From positions 121,079 through 185,078 of the forward strand of contig CBDFJL010000003.1 in NCBI GenBank assembly GCA_965248495.1: a DNA stretch of 64,000 bases, given 5' to 3'. Position numbers and translations under genes: made by a program. A model generated the notes under the pieces. It worked only from the letters and a program-made list of their open reading frames with translations, was not told the origin of the DNA and did not search any database. The DNA comes from Dehalococcoidia bacterium (GTDB lineage: Bacteria; Chloroflexota; Dehalococcoidia; Lucifugimonadales; Australimonadaceae). Numbering within the stretch: position 1 is the stretch's first letter; every line of letters starts with the position of its first letter. Positions 3,656 to 15,632 of this stretch are shown here, piece by piece.

Positions 3656-6409
3656 CTATGCAGCCCATCGCCGGCGAGGACCGCTTCGCGCCTTCAGGTT
3701 CGCCGCGTCGTCCCGCTGCGCAGCATCGACCACGCCCCCTACCACGTTGAGGAGATGCCCCGGCTCGAAGGGCTTCGAGATGACCTTGCGTGCCGTGCGC
3801 TTCAAGAACGCGCGCGTGTCGCCGCTTACCGAGTCGCCGGTGAGGAACACGACGTTGGAGGCCAAGGTCTCGTCGAGGCTTTTCAGCGCTTCGTAGAACT
3901 CGCGGCCGGACATGTCGGGCATCTTGATGTCGAGCAGGATGACGTCGTGCTTCGCCGTCTTGGCGAGCCTCAACCCCTCAGCGGGGGTCTCGCTCAACAC
4001 GACGTGGTAGCCAACGCCGCTCAGCAGCTCATGGAGCAGCTCCCGAACGTAGCGCTCATCGTCCACGACGAGCACCGTGCCACGGGAAACGGGAGAAGCA
4101 GGCAACGACAGGCCCGCTTCCGCTCCGGTCTCCAGAGCCGCTGCTGGGAACTCAAGCTTGAAGGTTGTCCCCCTGCCCAGCTTGGTGTCGAAGACGATGG
4201 TCCCGCCGTACGACCGGACGATGCCGTGGCAAATCGAGAGGCCAAGGCCCGTGCCCTTACCGATCTCCTTCGTGGTCACGAACGGGTCGAAGGCCCGCCG
4301 CGACACGCTTTGCGGCATCCCTGGACCGTCGTCGCTCACCGTGATCCGGACTCCGCGGCGGACCTGCTTCGTGGCCACGGTGACCGTGCTGCCTTGACCG
4401 GACCCCACCATCGCATCGACGGCATTGTTCATGAGGTTCAGCAGCACCGACTGGAGCTCCCCGTGGTCGGCCTCGATCGAGGGGTTGGACGCATCCAGGT
4501 CGACCTTCAGGGCGTAACCACTGTGCTTCAGGGTGTAGGAGCGCAGCTCCACCGTTTCGGCAACCGCGTCATTGACCGCCACACGTGTGCGGACGCCCTC
4601 GTCCTTACGCGCGAACCGCAGCAGGTTGTGGACGATCTGCGCGGCGCGCTGCGCCTCCTGAGCCACGAGCTCAGCGTGCCGCCGCCGCTTGCTCGGCACG
4701 GTGTCCTCCAACAGCAGCGTCGAGAACCCGACGACCGACGTGAGCGGATTGTTGAGCTCGTGAGCGACCCCCGCGACCAGCTCGCCCAGCGCCGAGAGCT
4801 TCTCGGTCTGGACCAGTACCTCCTGGGCCATGCGAAGGTCTCCCAGCGCCTTGACGGCGCGCCGCTCGCTGCGTTTCAGCGCCTTCTCAGCGGCCTTCCG
4901 CTTGTCGATGTCAACGGACAGCTGCCGGTTGAGCTCGGCAAGCTCCCGCGTGCGGACGTGCTCCGCGGCGGCCAACCGTCCGTTCTCGATGACGGCCCCG
5001 ACGCTGCCGACCACCGCCGTCAGCATGCGGACCCGGTCCGGTGGAAACGTGTCTTCGTTAACCGATGCGAGGTTGACGACCCCGAGCACGTGGTCGCCCG
5101 AGATGATGGGGACCGCCACGAGCGAGCGCACGCCCGCCTGGACCAGCTGGTCGGTGCGCGCTGGGTGGTTCGGGTAATCGTTGGCCACGATGACGTGTCC
5201 TTCGTGAAAGGCCGTGAATGAGACGCCGGAGCCCGGGGGGAGCCTACCTCCCGGCGGGCCCTCCGTGACCACGTCGCCCACCAAGGCGACAAGGTTGAGC
5301 GTTTTGCCATCCTCCTCCGGCACGTAGACGGCGGCGCGGTCCGCATGGCCGACCCGGACCAGCTCCTCGAGCATCTGCGTGGCCTTGGTCCGGAAGTCCA
5401 CCGGCTGCACGAGGATGTTGGCGATGTTGAAGGTCGCCTCCAATTCGCTGGAGCGCGAGCGCTCCAGCTCCTGAAGGCGAGCGTTGTCCATGAGCGAACC
5501 GACGGCGTCGACCATCCCTTCCAGCAACTGCACCCGCTGCGGCGTGAAGTGGCCCGACTCAACTGACGGTGTCGTGACGACGCCCACGGTGCGGTCGTTG
5601 ACGATGATCGGCAGGCTCACGGTCGACCCAAAATGCCCGCCCTTGACTATCACGGGTATGGCCCGCGGCTCGGATGCGTAGTCGTCGGAGAGCACCGTCT
5701 CGCCATCCCGGTATGCAGCGCCGGTGATGCCCTGGTCAAAGTCGATGCGGCTTACCGCTGAGAGAGACCGCTTGCCATCGTTGACGGTTGCGAGGGGCAC
5801 GAGCCGCTGGGCCTGCGGCTCTGGGATCCAAAGGCTTGCGTACTCCGAACCGACCATGTTGCAAACCTCGAAGAGGAGCTTGTGCGCCTTCTCGTCGAAG
5901 CTGCCGTCCTCGACCAGAGTGCGCGCGGTGGTGAAGAAGGCCTCCAGCTCATGCGAGCGGGCGCGCTCGACCTCCTCCAGCCGGTGCCGTTCGGTCACGT
6001 CGCGGACGACCGCCAGGGATGCAGGTTTGCCCTGGAAAGTGGTTGGTCTCGCTCGGACATGCACATGCCCAACGGTGCCGTCCAACCGACGCACACGGAA
6101 CTCATACTCCGGAGGCACCGGCTCCCCACGTTGGCGGGCCAGGGCACGCGCCTGGACCATTGGCCGGTCCTCTGGCAGCACGCTCGCGAACGGGCCGTTA
6201 TCGGCAACCCGCGAGGGGTCGTACCCGGTGATCTCGCGAAACGCGTCGTTGGCGAGGGCAACAGTCGAGCCTGACAATACGACCATGCCTTCGGGCATGT
6301 CCGCTATCAGCGAGCGCAGGTCGGATTCCGACTGGGAGTCGCCCAGCGACGCCGGGGCCGTACGTGCCCCCGGCTCCGCACCCTGCTTCCTCTTCGTCGA
6401 CTTCGGCAT
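3656..6409 (-). CDS. Hybrid sensor histidine kinase (PAS-GAF-GAF-HisKA-HATPase-REC)
   Basis: EKLSALGELVAGVAHELNNPL H-box, NLMNNA, DDGPG, PFVTTKEIGKGTGLGL, C-terminal VLVVDDE...LLDIKMPDMSG...KPF. Soluble, no TM segment. Confidence 0.95.
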   Translation of the reverse strand: MPKSTKRKQGAEPGARTAPASLGDSQSESDLRSLIADMPEGMVVLSGSTVALANDAFREITGYDPSRVADNGPFASVLPEDRPMVQARALARQRGEPVPPEYEFRVRRLDGTVGHVHVRARPTTFQGKPASLAVVRDVTERHRLEEVERARSHELEAFFTTARTLVEDGSFDEKAHKLLFEVCNMVGSEYASLWIPEPQAQRLVPLATVNDGKRSLSAVSRIDFDQGITGAAYRDGETVLSDDYASEPRAIPVIVKGGHFGSTVSLPIIVNDRTVGVVTTPSVESGHFTPQRVQLLEGMVDAVGSLMDNARLQELERSRSSELEATFNIANILVQPVDFRTKATQMLEELVRVGHADRAAVYVPEEDGKTLNLVALVGDVVTEGPPGGRLPPGSGVSFTAFHEGHVIVANDYPNHPARTDQLVQAGVRSLVAVPIISGDHVLGVVNLASVNEDTFPPDRVRMLTAVVGSVGAVIENGRLAAAEHVRTRELAELNRQLSVDIDKRKAAEKALKRSERRAVKALGDLRMAQEVLVQTEKLSALGELVAGVAHELNNPLTSVVGFSTLLLEDTVPSKRRRHAELVAQEAQRAAQIVHNLLRFARKDEGVRTRVAVNDAVAETVELRSYTLKHSGYALKVDLDASNPSIEADHGELQSVLLNLMNNAVDAMVGSGQGSTVTVATKQVRRGVRITVSDDGPGMPQSVSRRAFDPFVTTKEIGKGTGLGLSICHGIVRSYGGTIVFDTKLGRGTTFKLEFPAAALETGAEAGLSLPASPVSRGTVLVVDDERYVRELLHELLSGVGYHVVLSETPAEGLRLAKTAKHDVILLDIKMPDMSGREFYEALKSLDETLASNVVFLTGDSVSGDTRAFLKRTARKVISKPFEPGHLLNVVGGVVDAAQRDDAANLKARSGPRRRWAA

Positions 6410-6894
6410 ACCTGCCCCTCGGACCCGCGGCTCGTCTCGCCGCCATCCCCGTTCGCTGGTCCCCCTGGGCACCGTCCTAGCGACCGATGGCGTCGTGGGT
6501 CTCGACCCGCTTTCCTAAGGATATGAAAGGCGTGAAGGACTGACACCGGACGAAGGTAGCCAACGCAGTCGAAGACCCGGCATGCGAGTCGCTCGAGCGT
6601 GGACGCGGATTGGGAGCATGCCTGATGGTGCCGCAGGCCGAGTCAGCGTAGTGCTGAAAGGTCCTCAGTGGGGTTGCCGCCGACCACCAGGGTGTCAGCG
6701 GGGCGCCCGGACACCAATCTGCCGTCGCGTCCCCAACGGCTATCGACTCCACGGCCTGGCTGGTGCCCGTCAGCAAAGCCTCGGCGTTGGACAGGCCCGC
6801 GCGGCCGAAAGCACGGGCCTCCTACACGAACTCGTCCGGAGGGCAGCCGAGACGGCCCCGCATGCGCAAGGGATTGGCGACGCGGAGGAGAGCG

Positions 6895-8101: not shown

Positions 8102-8130
8102 TTGACGCACCGCTCCGCTGCCCATACAGT
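8102..8130 (+). promoter_or_regulatory. Putative sigma70 promoter
   Basis: TTGACG-N17-TACAGT upstream of GGGAGG RBS and ATG 8159. Confidence 0.5.
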
Positions 8131-8158
8131 CGCGGTTGAGCTTGGTGGGAGGATAGCC

Positions 8159-9292
8159 ATGGCAACCGAGACCAACGTCGGGCGCATCCTGCGGACGGCG
8201 GAGGACTTTGCGGTCCAGGTCCGCGCCGGCGTGCGCAACCTCGTCGAGAACTGCACCGAGGCTGAGGCCGGCGAGACCATCGTCTTGATCAACGACGGCG
8301 CCCGCATCGACGCCGCGATGAGCGCCCTCATCGAGGACGCCATCCAACGGAAGGGCGCTCGGAGCGCAGTCTTGTGGGTCGAGCCCCAGGAAGGCGACTC
8401 ACGCTACCTGAACGCCCGGCGGCACCCCTTCACGCTGTCCAGCGAGCAGGTGACGACGCTGCTGAGCGCCGACCGGATCATCGTCCACGCGGACGCCGAA
8501 CACCTCATCCCCTACCTGGCGAACGCCGCGACACGGCCGCTGATGGTCCAGAACCGCTCGGCCACGGCGGAGAGTTTGGCCACCAGCGAGGCCCGCTATC
8601 CGTGGGGCATTGCGGACGCGCTACACCAGGTGCTGAACAAGGACATCTTCCCCGAAGGCGCACGTTGGCGCATCACCGCCTCCAACGGCACCGACATCCA
8701 CGGCTTGGTGCCGGAGCCGACACTTCGGGCCAGCTATTTCGAGGACGAAGTCGGCGCCACCGGCGTCGACCGTTCGTTCAACTCCTCGGCCTACCTCCCG
8801 GTCGGCTCAGCCGACGCCGAGGGCGTCATCGTCGTCGAGTGGATGGACGGCACCAAGCTCAACGCCGCCCACGACCCGGCCTACCTGGAGATAGGGGCCA
8901 ACCGCATGCGCGGCATCGCCGGCGGGCTTCAGGACACCAAGTGGATCGATGACTTCTGGGCCGCGACGCAGGGCCTCGTCGAGCGCTTCGGCGACCAGGC
9001 GATGGTGGTCGACTCCTGGCATAGCGGGACCCACCCGCAGACCACCAGCTGGGCCGGCGGGACCCGGCACCTGCACTTCCACATAGGCCGTACCACAGGG
9101 AAGGCGGGTGACTTTGTATGGGCGGGCATTAAGTACTTCACCCTCACCGTCAACGACCAACCGGTGTCCATCGACGGGAGACTGGCAATTCTCGACCATC
9201 CCACCGTGCGAGCAGCAGCCGAGCGGTACGACTTCGAGGACTGGCGCGAGGCGTGGCCCCGCTCCAACCACTGGCAGGTCGACTCCGCCTAG
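8159..9292 (+). CDS. Thermophilic metalloprotease M29 / NicX-like fold protein
   Basis: Pattern ..C.....GETIVLIND, ITASNGTDIHG, AEGVIVVE, LEIGANRMRGIAGG, HSGTHP, HLHFHIG, LTVNDQPVSIDGRL matches the M29-like layout. Confidence 0.6.
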   Translation: MATETNVGRILRTAEDFAVQVRAGVRNLVENCTEAEAGETIVLINDGARIDAAMSALIEDAIQRKGARSAVLWVEPQEGDSRYLNARRHPFTLSSEQVTTLLSADRIIVHADAEHLIPYLANAATRPLMVQNRSATAESLATSEARYPWGIADALHQVLNKDIFPEGARWRITASNGTDIHGLVPEPTLRASYFEDEVGATGVDRSFNSSAYLPVGSADAEGVIVVEWMDGTKLNAAHDPAYLEIGANRMRGIAGGLQDTKWIDDFWAATQGLVERFGDQAMVVDSWHSGTHPQTTSWAGGTRHLHFHIGRTTGKAGDFVWAGIKYFTLTVNDQPVSIDGRLAILDHPTVRAAAERYDFEDWREAWPRSNHWQVDSA

Positions 9293-9427
9293 TCGCTTCT
9301 CACCGGCCGGGCCCGGTGGTACGGTCGTTGCATGTCCGCGCGCCGGCCATCGGCCGCGGGCCCCAGCCGTCGAGAGCCCATCCATCGAGAGTAGAAACAG
9401 CGGCGTAGGAAAGGAGAGGAAGAAAAC

Positions 9428-10225
9428 GTGACCCAAGCATCGAAAGCATTCGACATCGCGACGCGCGGCGAGCCGCTCGAGCACGTCTGCCGCATCGAGC
9501 CGACGAGCAAGCGCATCCGCGCCTTCCTGAACGGCGTGGCCATCGCCGACAGCACGGACGCGGTCATCATGCACGAGACGCGGCACATCCCGGTCTACTA
9601 CATCCCGATGGCCGACGTCCGCATGGACCTCATGGAGCCAACGGACAACAAGACCCACTGACCGATCCGCGGCGACGCTCGGTACTGGAGCGTCAAGGTC
9701 GGCGAGCGGTTCGTGGAGAACGTGATCTGGAACTATCCCGTGCCGCTGGAGGGCGCGGTGGACGTCATCGACTACGTCGCCTTCTATTGGGACCGTGTCG
9801 ACGCCTGGTTCGAGGAGGACGAGGAGGTCTTCGTCCACGCCCGCGATCCTTACAAGCGGGTGGACTGCCTCTCGAGCTCGCGCAAGGTCAGTATCGTCGT
9901 GAACGGCGAGACCATCGCAGAGACCAACAACTCGGTCCTGCTATTCGAGACGGGCATGCCACGCCGCTTCTACATCCCAAAGGCCGACGTGCGGCCAGGC
10001 GCCCTGCAGTCCAGCGAGAAGATCACGCGCTGCCCTTACAAGGGCGAGGCCCACTACTACTCCATCAAGGCAGGCGGCGAGACTGTCGAGGACCTGGCTT
10101 GGTCATACCGGTATCCGACCGCTGAGGCCGGCAAGGTCGCCGGCCACCTCTGCTTCCCGCAAGGGAAGGTTGACCTCTTCGTCGACGGCGAGCTGGAGCC
10201 GAAGCCCCAGACCCGCTGGGACTAG
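9428..10225 (+). CDS. Tandem DUF427 domain protein with in-frame UGA (candidate selenoprotein, 265 aa)
   Basis: ORFs 9428..9661 and 9713..10225 share one frame separated only by TGA 9659-9661. Read-through gives TH-U-PIRGDARYW, which aligns with the second domain's TR-C-PYKGEAHYY. Confidence 0.85.
9674..9694 (+). promoter_or_regulatory. Candidate bacterial SECIS element
   Basis: gacgctc-[ggtactg]-gagcgtc: perfect 7-bp stem starting 12 nt after the UGA, with the loop beginning GGU. Confidence 0.7.
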
Positions 10226-10247: not shown

Positions 10248-10275
10248 AAGGCCCGGGCGGAGTCGCCCGGGCCTT
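10248..10275. terminator. Hairpin between convergent genes
   Basis: aaggcccgggcg-gagt-cgcccgggcctt. Confidence 0.65.
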
Positions 10276-10299: not shown

Positions 10300-11499
10300 C
10301 TACCCCGCTGCCTCCACGCTGGCGAGGGCGGCCTCGCGCACGTCGTCCGGCACCTCGCCACGGGCCGTCGTGTTGCACATCTCGATGAAGTCGTAGGGGT
10401 CGACGTCGGGTCGGAACAGCAGCGTCGGCTTGTTGGCGCCGTGCCGGTGCGCGAACACAGTCTGGGCCAGGACGATGCCCTTGTCCTGGTCATTGAACTT
10501 CCCCTTCTGCATGGGGCGCGCCCAGAGGTGGTACCACAGCGTGGTGAACAGCCAGCTAACGGGGTTGTGCGGCCAGTGGGCGCTGACCTGGAAGTATCGA
10601 TAGTAGTTTCCGTCCATGGCGACGTACCACTCGTAGTAGAGCCCACCGTGCATGGGAAAGTTGGGAATGCGCAGCAGTCCGGGGAGGCGCGTCCCGGACT
10701 GGCGGACCTTGCCGCGCACCTTCTTGTGGAAGCCGCGGCCGAGGAACCGCCAGGGGAGCTGAGGCGGCCAGTACCCAAGCCCCGGGTAGCTGAACACGCC
10801 AGGGGCTGCCCCGGACTGCTGATTCGACATGAGGTAGACGCCGTCGTCGGGGTCCTCGCGCAGCTCGTTGTGCACCTCGCGGACGCCGCTGACGCTGAAC
10901 TGCTTGTGGAACAGCCTGCCGACCGCGTCCCGGTGCAGCATCATCGCGTGGTTGCCCAGGCCGCCCTCGGCATGGAAACGCCAATTGCCCTTGACCACCT
11001 TCCAGCGGTAGTGGACGAGCGTGTCGTCGCCCAATAGCAGCCGGGGCACGTCGTCCTCGAGGGGGACCGGCGAGGTCCTGCCCATCCATATCCACACGAT
11101 GCCCTTGCGCTCTTCGGTGGGGAAGAGGCGGAGCCGAATCTTGCCGACGACCGGCGAATCGGGGCCGTCCGTCAGCGCCGCGACGCATGCCCCGTTCCCC
11201 TCCAGGTCGAACGTCCAGCCGTGGAAGCGGCAAGAGATGGCCGCGGTACCGGGGAACTCGAACTTGCCGAGCGACAATCGAGCACCGCGGTGCGGGCACT
11301 CGTCGATCATCGCGTGGACCTTGCCGTTGAGGCGCACGACGGCAATCGGCTCGCCGCAGATCACGAGCCTGCTCGGCCGCCTGCCCACCTCCCGCGACCC
11401 GCACAGCGGGTACCAGTAGTTCTTGAAGCCGCTCGCCGCCCGCTCGTAGGGCGTCGAGGCTTGCTCATGCCAGGGGGCTAGGTCGCGTTCCGTTTGCAT
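10300..11499 (-). CDS. Rieske non-heme iron oxygenase R2 (atypical Fe-site motif)
   Basis: GFKNYWYP, CPH...CRFH, TDGPDS, NWRFHAEGGLGNHAMMLH, YYEWYV, FNDQD. Confidence 0.9.
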   Translation of the reverse strand: MQTERDLAPWHEQASTPYERAASGFKNYWYPLCGSREVGRRPSRLVICGEPIAVVRLNGKVHAMIDECPHRGARLSLGKFEFPGTAAISCRFHGWTFDLEGNGACVAALTDGPDSPVVGKIRLRLFPTEERKGIVWIWMGRTSPVPLEDDVPRLLLGDDTLVHYRWKVVKGNWRFHAEGGLGNHAMMLHRDAVGRLFHKQFSVSGVREVHNELREDPDDGVYLMSNQQSGAAPGVFSYPGLGYWPPQLPWRFLGRGFHKKVRGKVRQSGTRLPGLLRIPNFPMHGGLYYEWYVAMDGNYYRYFQVSAHWPHNPVSWLFTTLWYHLWARPMQKGKFNDQDKGIVLAQTVFAHRHGANKPTLLFRPDVDPYDFIEMCNTTARGEVPDDVREAALASVEAAG

Positions 11500-12272: not shown

Positions 12273-13580
12273 TCAGACCACGCTCGCCGAGTCCTTGGCC
12301 GGTCCGACGGTGCCGAGGCTCCCCGACTGCCCGGCCAGCACCAGGTTCCGAACACCACCGCTGAACAGCCCCACGAGGGCCACGTTGACCAAGACCACCG
12401 ATCCGCCCAGCGCCAGCGCGCCGGGCGCGCCGATGGCCCCGGCGATGAAGTTGAGCCCCGCGGAGCCCAGCGCCGGGAACGTCCAGGACAGCCCGTACAG
12501 GCTCATCACCCGCCCCCGGAGGTTATCTGGGACCGAGGTCTGCACGGTGACCTCGACCGCCATCATGTAGGCCAGCGAGCCGAACCCGACCACCACTTGG
12601 AGGATCACCCCGGTGACGATGCTTCGCGTGAAGGACAAGGCGAGCAGCGACGCCCCGAAGATCAATCCCTGGGTCAGCATTACCCTCCCGATCGGGAACC
12701 GCCGCAGGATGACTGGCGTGGTCAGCACGGCCAAGAAGGAGCCCACGCCTCCACCCGCCCAGAGAGCCGAGAGGCCGCGCGCGTCCACGTCGAGCACCTC
12801 CCCTGCGAACACCGGCAGCAGGAAGATGAAGCCAAGCCCTGCGAGGGAGTTCACGTAGGTCATCCCGATAACGACGCGAAACAGCGCGTGTTCCCGCACG
12901 TAGCGCAGGCCCTCCCCGAGGTTCCTGACGATGTTGCCTGTCGGGGGTGTTTCGTGGGCATTGGGCCGCAGGCGCATGATCAGCAGCGCCATCGCCAGGA
13001 AGCCGGCGCCCGACGTGGCGAACGCGAGTCCGGCCCCCTGCGTCAGCCCTGAGCCGGCGTAGGCGATGATGAAGCCGCCGAGGACCGGCGCCACCGGCCG
13101 CGAGAGCTGCCAGGTCATCGCGTTGAGCGACACCGCCTGCGCAAGCAGCGCCCGGTCAGGCAGGAGCCGAGGGTAGAGCGTCTGACGACTCGGCTGGTCG
13201 AACGAGAACACGCTGCCCAACACGAACGCCGCCACCATGAGGTGCCAGACCTCGATGCGTTGCGCGATGGTGAGAGCGGCGATCACTCCCATGACCACCG
13301 TGGCGGTCGCCTGCGCGGTCGCGATCACCTTGCGCTGGTCCAAGCGGTCCGCCAGCACACCGCCAAAGAGTCCAATCGTGATCGGCGGTATGCCGAGGAA
13401 CAGCGTGACCGTACCAACGGTCAGCGGTGAGCGGGTCAGCTCGAACGCCAGCCACCCCAGGGTGAACTGCATCATCTGCTGGCCGGTGACCTGCGATTGC
13501 AGCCCAATCCAGTACACGCGGAAATCCCGGTAGCGGAGCACCGAGAAGAGGCTGAACTGGCGGGCGACGGCGTCGATCAC
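12273..13580 (-). CDS. MFS transporter (MFS_3/EntS-like)
   Basis: LRYRDFRVYW, GGVLADRLDQRK, FDQPSRQ, VPDNLRGRVMS; about 12 TM. Confidence 0.92.
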   Translation of the reverse strand: MIDAVARQFSLFSVLRYRDFRVYWIGLQSQVTGQQMMQFTLGWLAFELTRSPLTVGTVTLFLGIPPITIGLFGGVLADRLDQRKVIATAQATATVVMGVIAALTIAQRIEVWHLMVAAFVLGSVFSFDQPSRQTLYPRLLPDRALLAQAVSLNAMTWQLSRPVAPVLGGFIIAYAGSGLTQGAGLAFATSGAGFLAMALLIMRLRPNAHETPPTGNIVRNLGEGLRYVREHALFRVVIGMTYVNSLAGLGFIFLLPVFAGEVLDVDARGLSALWAGGGVGSFLAVLTTPVILRRFPIGRVMLTQGLIFGASLLALSFTRSIVTGVILQVVVGFGSLAYMMAVEVTVQTSVPDNLRGRVMSLYGLSWTFPALGSAGLNFIAGAIGAPGALALGGSVVLVNVALVGLFSGGVRNLVLAGQSGSLGTVGPAKDSASVV

Positions 13581-13711
13581 GGGCCGAGCTTAGCACGGGC
13601 CCGCGAGGCTTCCCCCCGCCGTCACCGTGCCCCCCGGTCACGCTGGTTGTGAGGCCCCAGCGTCGGTGATAGGTTGCCGTCCAGGCCCCGGTACCCGCGC
13701 AGGAGCTCCTT

Positions 13712-14698
13712 TTGACCAACCGGCCACGATTCGGCTTGATCCTCCCCAACCGCGACGTCGCACTCGGCCTAGCCACGGCCGATGCCCTCATCGAGATGGC
13801 GGAGCACGCGGAGGAGTCGGGCGCGTTCGACCATGTGTGGGTGGGCGACTCGATCATGGCGAAGCCCCGGCTGGAGTCGCTCACGCTCTTGGCGGCCCTC
13901 GCGGCGCGGACGTCGCACGTGAAGCTCGGCGTTGCCTGCATGGCCAGCCTGCCTTCGCGCGACCCTCTCGTTTTCGCCTACCAGTGGGCCAGCCTCGACC
14001 ATCTGTCCGGCGGCCGCATGATCCTCCAGGCGTGCATCGGCGATAGCCCGGTGGACCCAGGGCCGCAGGCCGAGTACGTCAACATGGGAATCGACCCCGC
14101 GGACCGAGGGGCGCGCCTCGACGAGAACATCGAGGTCATGCGGCGCCTCTGGGCCGAGCCCACCGTCGACTTCGACGGCCGGTTCCACAGCTTCCGGGGC
14201 GCGTTGGTGGAGCCCAAGCCCATCCAGAGCCCGCCGCCGATATGGATAGCCAGCAGACCCCGGTCCAAGTCTCCGCAGTCGAAGGCGGCCGAGCAATCGC
14301 TGCGCCGCGTCGCGCAGCTGGGCGACGGTTGGGTGACCACCGCGCAGAGCGTCGATGACTACGTGTGGTTTCGTGGCCAGCTGGACGGCTACGCGGCGGA
14401 GTACGGCCGCGACTTCGGCGCGCTGCCCCGGTGTCACTATTACGGCATCGCCATTGGGAGCGACCGCGAGAACGCGTTCGCCGAGACGAAGGCGTACATG
14501 GACAGGTACTACAACCGCGACCACTCCCGCGCCTACATCGAGGGGTCAACGGCGCTTGGCGATCCGGAGCAATGCTACCAAGCCATCGCCGGCTACGTGG
14601 ACGCAGGGGCGACGGACGTCCTGCTCCGCTTCCCACCCATCGACACACGCGCGCAGATACAGCGATTTATCGACGAGGTGCTCCCACTCTTTGGCTAG
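13712..14698 (+). CDS. LLM-class flavin-dependent oxidoreductase
   Basis: HVWVGDS, LAALAARTSHVKLG, WASLDHLSGGR, PKPIQSPPPIWIA, RRVAQLGDGW. Confidence 0.93.
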   Translation: MTNRPRFGLILPNRDVALGLATADALIEMAEHAEESGAFDHVWVGDSIMAKPRLESLTLLAALAARTSHVKLGVACMASLPSRDPLVFAYQWASLDHLSGGRMILQACIGDSPVDPGPQAEYVNMGIDPADRGARLDENIEVMRRLWAEPTVDFDGRFHSFRGALVEPKPIQSPPPIWIASRPRSKSPQSKAAEQSLRRVAQLGDGWVTTAQSVDDYVWFRGQLDGYAAEYGRDFGALPRCHYYGIAIGSDRENAFAETKAYMDRYYNRDHSRAYIEGSTALGDPEQCYQAIAGYVDAGATDVLLRFPPIDTRAQIQRFIDEVLPLFG

Positions 14699-15632
14699 CC
14701 TGCTCGAGCGGGTGGAGATCACCGACCCGACCGATCTCACGGTGGACCGGGCGGCCGACTTCCCACGGCTCGCCGAGGCAGCCGGCCTCGACGGGGTCGG
14801 CATGCGCGACCACCAGCACAGTGGAAGGGATGTCTACGCGCGCATCACCGTGGCCGCGATGGCGACCTCCCGCGTCTCGCTGTTTCCCTGTGTGACCAAC
14901 CCGCTGACACGCCATCCCACGGTGCTCGCCTCGATCGCGAACTCGATGGAGGAGATGGCACCGGGGCGCTTTCGGCTCGTCGTCGGCGCCGGTGACCAGT
15001 CTGCGCAGCACATCGGCAGGCCGGCCGCCACCGTCGCCGAGCTGCGCGGGGCGGTCGAAATGCTGCGCTCGCTGCTCGCGGGCCACGCGACGGCCATCGG
15101 CGCCAGCCAGACGGAGCAGATGGCGAACGTCAGCCCGCGGCCTGTCCCGGTCCACGTCAATGCAAGCAGCCCCAAGATGGTCCGCATGGCCGGCGAAGTC
15201 GCGGACGGTGTGCTGCTCATGGTCGGGCGGCATCCCAATACGATGGCCGCTGCCGGCGAGGCGCTGCGCGAGGGCGCCGCGCTGGCGGGCCGCGCGGTCG
15301 GCGACCTCGGCGTGACCTATGCCCTGCCAACGTTCATCGACTCGACCACCGAGCGGGCCCGCCAGCGCGCGCGTGTCATCCTCGGCTTCTGGCTTGCCCG
15401 CCCCGCGCGCATCTTCACGCGTCACGCGAAGGCGACCGGCGCAAGCGAGGCGGCGTTGCTGGACGGCATGGGCCTCGTGGGCACGGCCGAAGAGTGCGCC
15501 GAGCAGCTTCGCGAGTTCGCCGAGCAACCCGGTGCCCCCAAACATGTCGTCTGTCAGCTCTACGGCGGCAACGACGACCAGCGCGGGCTGCTTGATGCGT
15601 TCGAGCGCACCATCCTGCCGCGCGTGAAGTAA
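14691..15632 (+). CDS. LLM-class (Mer-like, possibly F420-dependent) oxidoreductase
   Basis: RDVYARITVAAMATSRVSLFPCVTNPLTRHP, APGRFRLVVGAGD, PKMVRMAGEVADG. TTG start overlaps the upstream stop, with GAGGTG RBS. Confidence 0.88.
   Translation: MASLLERVEITDPTDLTVDRAADFPRLAEAAGLDGVGMRDHQHSGRDVYARITVAAMATSRVSLFPCVTNPLTRHPTVLASIANSMEEMAPGRFRLVVGAGDQSAQHIGRPAATVAELRGAVEMLRSLLAGHATAIGASQTEQMANVSPRPVPVHVNASSPKMVRMAGEVADGVLLMVGRHPNTMAAAGEALREGAALAGRAVGDLGVTYALPTFIDSTTERARQRARVILGFWLARPARIFTRHAKATGASEAALLDGMGLVGTAEECAEQLREFAEQPGAPKHVVCQLYGGNDDQRGLLDAFERTILPRVK

Follow-up and report, generated by a model that had tools for sequence, protein, structure and literature searches.

Introduction

Selenocysteine (Sec) sits in the active site of nearly all selenoproteins, and a natural Sec/Cys pair at one position of a protein family therefore points strongly to a functional residue. 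The DUF427 family (PF04248) occurs in bacteria and fungi and is placed, in the passages of PMC4287342 that treat it, in the beta-tent superfold together with MsrB, Gfa, MSS4, TCTP, and CULT; the same passages describe DUF427 as systematically without a zinc site. Here, we describe a gene of two tandem DUF427 domains at positions 9428-10225 of a 64,000-nucleotide stretch of a Dehalococcoidia genome (contig CBDFJL010000003.1, positions 121,079 to 185,078; this whole stretch is called the window below, and genome coordinates carry the prefix C3). An in-frame TGA occupies the position of the conserved Cys in the first domain and is followed directly by a hairpin. Judged on its conservation, its hairpin, and the Sec machinery of the genome, the locus is very probably a genuine bacterial selenoprotein gene of two DUF427 domains.

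Gene Structure and Conservation of the UGA Codon

A single frame runs on the forward strand from a GTG at 9428 to a TAG at 10223-10225, with 265 sense positions and one internal stop, the TGA at 9659-9661, which is codon 78 (Table 1). The initial annotation had described one 265-codon frame broken only at this TGA, and re-reading the sequence bore this out. The GTG start is backed by an N-terminal M-T-Q-x-F that is kept in the orthologs. The read-through protein scores 215.3 bits (cut-off 22.1) against Pfam PF04248 (DUF427, identifier NTP_transf_9), which it matches in two stretches; a search of NCBIfam with the same protein matched no family. Domain 1 reads KTH-TGA-PIRGDARYWSV and runs parallel to ITR-C-PYKGEAHYYSI in domain 2, and this correspondence, with the TGA at the Cys position, stands as it was first written.

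Homologs were sought in 61 genomes, i.e., that of the window and 60 relatives. A homolog was present in 42, and in 24 of them, including that of the window, it was a full-length ortholog of 51-100% identity that contained a single TGA; two further genomes held partial copies with one TGA. Of the 24 Sec-form genomes, one belongs to a second GTDB family of that order, and the others cover 10 genera of the window's own family. All 24 orthologs have the TGA in one alignment column, where each of the six stop-free homologs that were fetched has Cys. One short DUF427 match, in genome G033, had been flagged as containing one TGA and was rejected; it is an ordinary Cys form, and the TGA is its terminal stop.

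A further 80 loci came from a scan of species-representative genomes, giving 110 in all. The 35 Sec loci among them correspond to 30 distinct proteins, five being the same genomes reached by two routes. The TGA is in one column in all 35, and the aligned gene contains no other stop in any of them; the other 75 loci have Cys (59) or Ser, Asp, or Pro (16) in that column. Written as residues 78/202/242, with U for Sec, the Sec loci are U/S/C (25) or U/C/C (10), and those with Cys78 are C/C/C (39), C/C/A (13), or C/C/S (7), while the 16 loci with Ser, Asp, or Pro at 78 have Cys at 202; thus, the two motif Cys/Sec residues are never both absent from a protein. The initial annotation had a Sec domain and a Cys domain in one chain; the window gene fits this description, whereas most Sec loci (25 of 35) have Ser at the domain-2 position.

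The named records that have the Sec form are all Dehalococcoidia metagenome-assembled genomes. Across 251 evenly sampled genomes of the class, tandem DUF427 genes (E <= 1e-40) were found in eight, with the Sec form only in the window's family; the predicted Sec form is, in these samples, confined to one Dehalococcoidia lineage. A full-length Cys paralog is present in 14 of the 24 Sec-form genomes. That of the window's genome (C3:1739747-1740508) is 55% identical and has no in-frame TGA. The Sec gene is thus an extra paralog that exists beside the Cys gene instead of replacing it.

The ratio of nonsynonymous to synonymous substitution rates (dN/dS, Nei-Gojobori) was calculated for 11 close pairs, two of which had saturated dS. 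All nine computable pairs gave 0.04-0.27 for codons 79-265, similar to the 0.01-0.24 obtained upstream of the TGA, which indicates purifying selection on the codons 3' of the TGA. Over 9300-9834, contigs from the likely source sample are identical to the window sequence. A close strain from an independent study is represented by a 264-nt contig (9472-9735) that differs by four substitutions and retains the TGA; neither source shows the TGC or TGT that the initial annotation had named as a refutation. In the public protein collections, the window gene and its genus relative are recorded only as 170-aa fragments that start after the TGA, and none of the 120 homologs listed there carries a selenoprotein name.

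The Hairpin 3' of the UGA

The upper stem of the hairpin, gacgctc (9674-9680) with gagcgtc (9688-9694), is a perfect 7 bp and starts 12 nt 3' of the TGA; both this stem and its GGU-starting loop were correctly described in the initial annotation. Criteria for a bacterial Sec insertion sequence (bSECIS) are given in PMC13188914 as a loop of 3-9 nt, an upper stem of at least 4 bp, a G in the first two loop positions, a spacing of 16-37 nt, and a minimum free energy (MFE) of <= -7.5 kcal/mol. The window's element passes with a spacing of 19, the loop GGUACUG, 7 bp, and -11.3 kcal/mol. So do 33 of the 35 Sec loci, with the loop always at +19 or +20; the remaining two hold the same hairpin, and the MFE over 60 nt chooses a competing fold. 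Among the non-Sec homologs, eight of 75 pass at the equivalent place, and their spacings are scattered.

A consensus structure was derived from the 48 nt beginning at the TGA, aligned in the 24 orthologs. Its lower stem is 6 bp long, its upper stem 5+3 bp with a bulged A, and its loop a GUAY tetraloop; none of the 24 sequences lacks an upper-stem pair. Columns 18-34 pair as C-G in 20 sequences and as U-A in four, the latter combining the Asp GAC/GAT wobble and a change from Val GTC to Ile ATC. In the 7-bp version, 93.8% of cells pair, compared with 27-48% for partners shifted by 1-3 columns, and the covariation score of the hairpin was reached by none of 500 shuffles. Relatives with UGA in the same column and a covarying hairpin, for which the initial annotation had suggested a search, were therefore found.

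Codon usage is also constrained here. Third-codon-position entropy is 0.73 in codons 79-92 versus 1.15 elsewhere (Mann-Whitney p = 0.005), and the four lowest-entropy of 187 sliding windows are all at codons 76-93. Strongly preferred codons in the hairpin include Arg85 (CGG, 12/12), Val89 (GTC, 20/20), and Gly82 (GGA, 21/24), and Ser88 is AGC in 23 of 24 and never TCN. The divergent Sec form at locus L066 uses other codons (Ser is UCU) and has a 7+2-bp hairpin with a GUA loop that begins at +21, as does the consensus tetraloop. These comparisons identify the hairpin after the TGA as a predicted SECIS.

Selenocysteine Machinery and Assessment of the Evidence

The window's genome (2.73 Mb, 3 contigs, 95% complete) has all four of selA, selB, selC, and selD, the presence of which had been left as a check. 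The tRNA-Sec scores 71.3 bits (cut-off 47) and is also called SeC by ARAGORN, with anticodon tca. SelA (423.5 bits) and SelB (332.7 bits) have no internal TGA, and neither does RF2 (462 bits), whereas SelD (383 bits) has one in-frame TGA. Because SelA, SelB, and RF2 are free of internal TGA and RF2 is present, UGA is an ordinary stop in this genome, Sec sites apart. The selD gene lies outside the window (C3:686579-687502, reverse strand), and its in-frame TGA falls in C-A-G-U-A-G-K-F, making SelD itself a predicted selenoprotein; its own SECIS is an 8-bp hairpin with a GUC loop, again G-U-first, 27 nt downstream of the TGA. A clear SelA was detected in 23 of the 24 Sec-form genomes, and the four relatives without a SelA match all lack the Sec form, but with SelA in 57 of the 61 genomes, this co-occurrence is a test of low power.

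In the mechanism that we propose, SelB with Sec-tRNA(Sec) would read UGA-78 as Sec during translation. SelB would be recruited by the SECIS hairpin directly 3' of the UGA, with its G-first apical loop 19-20 nt downstream, and Sec would stand in for the conserved Cys of the T-x-C-P-x-K-G motif in domain 1. The machinery, the conserved UGA column, the covarying hairpin, and the contigs that keep the TGA all support the selenoprotein interpretation with which the initial annotation began.

Several points weigh against this interpretation. The hairpin alone is not beyond chance: over 62 nt it folds at -25 kcal/mol (z = -0.98), and 38 of 200 shuffles reach at least this stability. Such a single-sequence fold is unremarkable in GC-rich sequence, and the case therefore rests on the comparison with other genomes. 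In that comparison, the compensatory change probably arose independently only about twice, and the hairpin encodes the conserved peptide G-D-A-R/Q-Y-W-S-V, so that its nucleotide conservation is partly protein-driven. Among the Sec-form genomes, G031 (92% complete, 140 contigs) is the one without a clear SelA match. In addition, Sec incorporation is deduced from comparative sequence evidence and not from direct detection.

Fold and Proposed Function

In an AlphaFold2 model (20-sequence alignment; pLDDT 86.9, pTM 0.71), Sec78 ends strand 69-78, right before the turn to strand 82-91, and would thus sit at the tip of a beta-hairpin. Foldseek matched the model to 3DJM (DUF427; E = 2.4e-9, TM 0.86-0.91, rmsd 1.5 A) and next to yippee domains, namely Mis18a (probability 0.99, TM 0.67-0.72) and YPEL5; both results agree with the beta-tent placement of DUF427 in the relevant passages of PMC4287342. 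We infer that the motif Cys/Sec is the functional residue of DUF427, most likely a nucleophile or redox centre, of which Sec would give the Dehalococcoidia paralog a more reactive version. The initial annotation had put Sec at the catalytic position of the family: Sec is indeed at the conserved motif Cys, but "catalytic" is a deduction rather than a demonstration. Tentatively, we would guess that the protein handles a small electrophile (e.g., a carbonyl, sulfoxide, or sulfenate) by redox or covalent chemistry, and that it may do so in partnership with an adjacent NAD(P)-dependent alcohol/carbonyl oxidoreductase.

Such a neighbor exists at some loci. At 15 of the 35 Sec loci, duplicates included, the DUF427 gene is preceded on its own strand, at a distance of 31-202 nt, by a Zn-dependent MDR alcohol dehydrogenase (Zn-ADH); at L028 the Zn-ADH occupies L028:205-1467 (+), and GGAGG is found in the gap before the DUF427 gene. 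The nearest models of the Zn-ADH are NDMA-dependent, mycothiol-formaldehyde, and class III dehydrogenase, but it scores below every NCBIfam cut-off (212 vs 440, 180 vs 513, and 165 vs 544). An aldo/keto reductase (AKR) adjoins five U/C/C loci in two arrangements (e.g., L024:290-1465, reverse strand). Among the 75 non-Sec loci, three have an ADH neighbor and one an AKR neighbor. The neighbors of Cys forms are diverse across phyla, the top one being the Mo subunit of aldehyde oxidase/xanthine dehydrogenase at eight of the 75 loci, a count without a background rate. The functional part of our interpretation is weakened by two features of this context: the Zn-ADH adjacency is one synteny block in the U/S/C subclade, and the surroundings of the window gene are not conserved, its neighbors being common only to a same-genus genome.

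A more specific idea, which we regard as doubtful, is that DUF427 proteins might be Cys/Sec-dependent beta-tent enzymes, functional analogues of MsrB, that would reduce or covalently trap sulfoxides, selenoxides, sulfenates, or carbonyls of small molecules. If true, it would explain both the co-occurrence of DUF427 with EgtB/SenA synthases and the Zn-ADH/AKR adjacency, and the Dehalococcoidia Sec form would pinpoint the catalytic residue. Table 1 of a 2026 JACS paper (PMC13674229) gives 5.7% for COG2343/DUF427 co-encoded with EgtB/SenA-type sulfoxide/selenoxide synthases. A linkage to ergothioneine or selenoneine genes was considered for this genome and rejected; the Egt genes are at ~1.87 Mb and the DUF427 genes at 0.13 and 1.74 Mb. 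The Egt genes, outside the window, are an EgtD (350 bits, above cut-off) and an EgtB-like gene (304 bits, cut-off 360) ~10 kb apart, and the organism may make ergothioneine or a related thio/seleno-imidazole.

A functional alternative accepts Sec decoding but takes the Sec/Cys to be a metal ligand, either a zinc-knuckle remnant or a soft-metal site, rather than a catalyst with redox or nucleophilic chemistry. In most beta-tent families, zinc is bound via Cys at hairpin tips, according to the account of the superfold in PMC4287342, and several bacterial selenoproteins are metal-binding (PMC13188914, Table 1). However, DUF427 is the family that the former account, where it discusses it, sets apart as "systematically" lacking the zinc site; the protein contains no CxxC and only one conserved Cys per domain, and the residue before Sec varies (H, F, T, Y, or R) across the Sec loci. 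We consider a metal-binding role unlikely and retain a nucleophile or redox centre as the preferred reading.

Alternative Readings of the UGA

The frame could instead yield two products, a 77-residue peptide ending at the TGA and a separate 170-aa protein initiated at GTG 9713. Database records P0002 and P0004 have this form, and termination competes with Sec insertion in known bacterial systems. However, DUF427 domain 1 would then be cut mid-fold, codons 79-95, which lie between the TGA and GTG 9713, are conserved (G82, D83, A84, Y86, and G92 are invariant), and none of the 35 Sec loci has a break in the frame; we give this reading very little credence. A dead gene, in which a nonsense mutation or a sequencing or assembly error made the TGA, would fit the facts that gene callers stop at the TGA and that databases hold only the 170-aa C-terminal piece (P0002). 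It is already contradicted by the same TGA in 24 of the 61 related genomes down to 51% identity, by the absence of any other stop in the 35 Sec loci and the dN/dS of 0.04-0.27 after the TGA, and by the contig of the independent study, and it can for practical purposes be set aside. General reassignment of UGA (e.g., to Trp or Gly) or non-specific read-through, without Sec, has nothing specific in its favor, as an open frame under TGA as a sense codon is not evidence in itself, and it is scarcely credible given that RF2, which reads UGA, is present at 462 bits, that in-frame TGA is absent from SelA, SelB, RF2, and the Cys paralog, that the TGA aligns with Cys and not with Trp or Gly, and that a position-specific hairpin and a complete Sec pathway accompany it.

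Phylogeny and Clade-Specific Motifs

A quick maximum-likelihood tree of 103 distinct proteins, with SH-aLRT as its only measure of support, united 29 of the 30 Sec forms in a single clade (SH-aLRT 99). L066 (L066:3004-3732) was placed outside this main Sec clade with weak support and may be a second, independent Cys-to-Sec conversion; its motif is T-T-U-P-W-K-G-E-A-R-Y-W-S-I, and it keeps CFYDER. The U/S/C forms (20 rows, support 94) are nested within the U/C/C forms, and loss of the domain-2 Cys therefore came after the gain of Sec. The 25 Sec loci with Ser at the domain-2 motif position are L023, L027, L028, L030, L032-L039, L043, L045, L046, and L049-L058. It is as if, in this derived subclade, the domain-2 Cys became dispensable once domain 1 carried Sec; conversely, all 16 homologs without Cys in domain 1 keep that of domain 2.

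The main Sec clade has the motifs U-P-I-K/R and A-R/Q-Y-W-S-V/I, in contrast to C-P-Y/F/R-K and A-S/T-Y-W/Y-S/T in the majority of Cys forms. A third difference is CFPQGK versus [CAS]-F-[FY]-N-E-[RK] in the other forms, and FPQGK is specific to this clade (34 of the 35 Sec loci, with single substitutions in two). Note that the first two differences fall on nucleotides of the hairpin, a coincidence which suggests that SECIS requirements reshaped the local protein sequence. Cys242 was considered as a resolving Cys specific to the Sec forms and rejected, as it is also present in 46 of the 75 non-Sec loci (39 of the 59 Cys/Cys forms).

Gene Neighborhood

A conserved operon around the window gene was looked for and rejected; synteny holds only within the genus. 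The open reading frame (ORF) directly upstream (8102-9292, +, 396 aa) is conserved only in the same-genus genome, at 83% identity, and has no Pfam or NCBIfam match. Between the DUF427 gene and the Rieske oxygenase gene lies an inverted repeat (Table 1) that is possibly a bidirectional terminator; the consensus terminator scan missed it because it has no T-run, and a scan of the sequence for sigma-70 promoters and terminators gave nothing useful. The Rieske oxygenase, together with the MFS and luciferase-like genes at 12273-15632, makes for an oxygenase-rich neighborhood. Further upstream is a hybrid sensor kinase (3656-6472, reverse strand; 938 aa) with PAS, two GAF stretches, HisKA, HATPase_c, and a receiver.

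Table 1. Features of the predicted selenoprotein locus and of its surroundings (window coordinates unless prefixed C3).
Feature	Position	Strand	Remarks
Tandem DUF427 gene, probable selenoprotein	9428..10225	+	265 residues, Sec predicted at position 78
Shine-Dalgarno-like AAAGGAGAGG	9410..9419	+	8 nt 5' of GTG start; read directly
DUF427 domain 1 (PF04248)	9515..9793	+	102 bits, one TGA inside; genome C3:130593-130871
Predicted Sec-UGA, codon 78	9659..9661	+	Cys position of T-x-C-P-x-K-G motif, domain 1
Predicted bSECIS	9662..9702	+	Lower stem 9662-9667/9697-9702 (6 bp), upper stem 9674-9680/9688-9694, apical loop 9681-9687 GGUACUG
Alternative consensus fold of the predicted bSECIS	GUAC tetraloop 9682-9685, bulged A 9689	+	
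DUF427 domain 2 (PF04248)	9887..10159	+	111.8 bits; genome C3:130965-131237
Cys202 codon TGC, domain 2	10031-10033	+	
Cys242 codon, CFPQGK motif	10151..10153	+	Cys in 35/35 Sec loci
Inverted repeat GGCCCGGGCG-GAGT-CGCCCGGGCC	10250..10273	.	Perfect 10 bp, GC-rich, between DUF427 and Rieske genes
Rieske oxygenase	10300-11499	-	Convergent, downstream of DUF427 gene
MFS transporter	12273-13580	-	
Two adjacent luciferase-like monooxygenase ORFs	13712-14698, 14355-15632	+	
EgtD and EgtB-like genes	C3:1867149-1868057 and C3:1877008-1878234		

Place in the Published Selenoproteome

Whether DUF427 was already listed among selenoprotein families had been left open, and no listing was found. DUF427/PF04248 is absent from the 119 prokaryotic selenoprotein families and subfamilies in Table 1 of a May 2026 review (PMC13188914), from the portions of GOS Tables 2 and 4 (PMC2398784) that were compared, which take in all but the end of Table 2 at most, and from deep-Sep Table 3 and the passages of BSepDB that were consulted. 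No full-text literature was found to link DUF427 with selenocysteine; supplementary tables and subscription journals are outside such a search, and an earlier mention is possible. Two apparent co-mentions of DUF427 and selenoproteins were discarded, one being a title in a reference list and the other DUF4277. DUF427 is therefore unlisted among the published selenoprotein families examined.

The family is large, with more than 7,000 homologs of the tandem type at E <= 1e-20 in the public protein collections, and current annotation shortens the Sec gene to the 170-aa fragment in every record examined. For a family of unknown function, the Sec form provides a testable hypothesis, that of a selenol/thiol nucleophile at a defined hairpin tip, and it would add a family without the thioredoxin fold to the bacterial selenoproteome.

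Comparison with Known Systems

Gfa (glutathione-dependent formaldehyde-activating enzyme) is a beta-tent protein paired with a class III Zn-ADH, and the DUF427 Sec form resembles it in having an upstream Zn-ADH at 15 of 35 loci. However, the adjacent ADH falls under every NCBIfam cut-off and the pairing is absent from the window, so the likeness is one of analogy only. Mammalian MsrB1 uses Sec, and MsrB (methionine-R-sulfoxide reductase) and DUF427 have in common a single catalytic-type Cys position that can be Sec. They also share the beta-tent superfold, on the evidence of the sections of PMC4287342 that concern it. They differ in that there is no detectable sequence similarity and no zinc site, and MsrB is not among the Foldseek matches listed; the MsrB zinc site consists of two CxxC, the window protein sequence contains none, and the protein is accordingly not of the MsrB type.

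The locus resembles the known bacterial selenoproteins (e.g., SelD, peroxiredoxin, DUF523, DUF166, DUF1858, and DUF3179; PMC13188914) in its in-frame UGA at a conserved Cys, in a hairpin directly 3' of the UGA that agrees with the bSECIS consensus, and in the full complement of selA/B/C/D in the genome. It differs from them in that the window protein has neither the thioredoxin fold nor UxxC or CxxU, and its local motif is T-x-U-P-I-K/R-G. The closest described structure is that of the Rhodobacter sphaeroides DUF427 protein 3DJM, to which domain 2 aligns at E = 5.6e-15, including the T-x-C-P-x-K-G motif. 3DJM is a single 116-aa domain, whereas the window protein is a two-domain tandem in which Sec is predicted to replace the Cys of domain 1, and the main Sec clade is further distinguished from other DUF427 proteins by its C-terminal CFPQGK.

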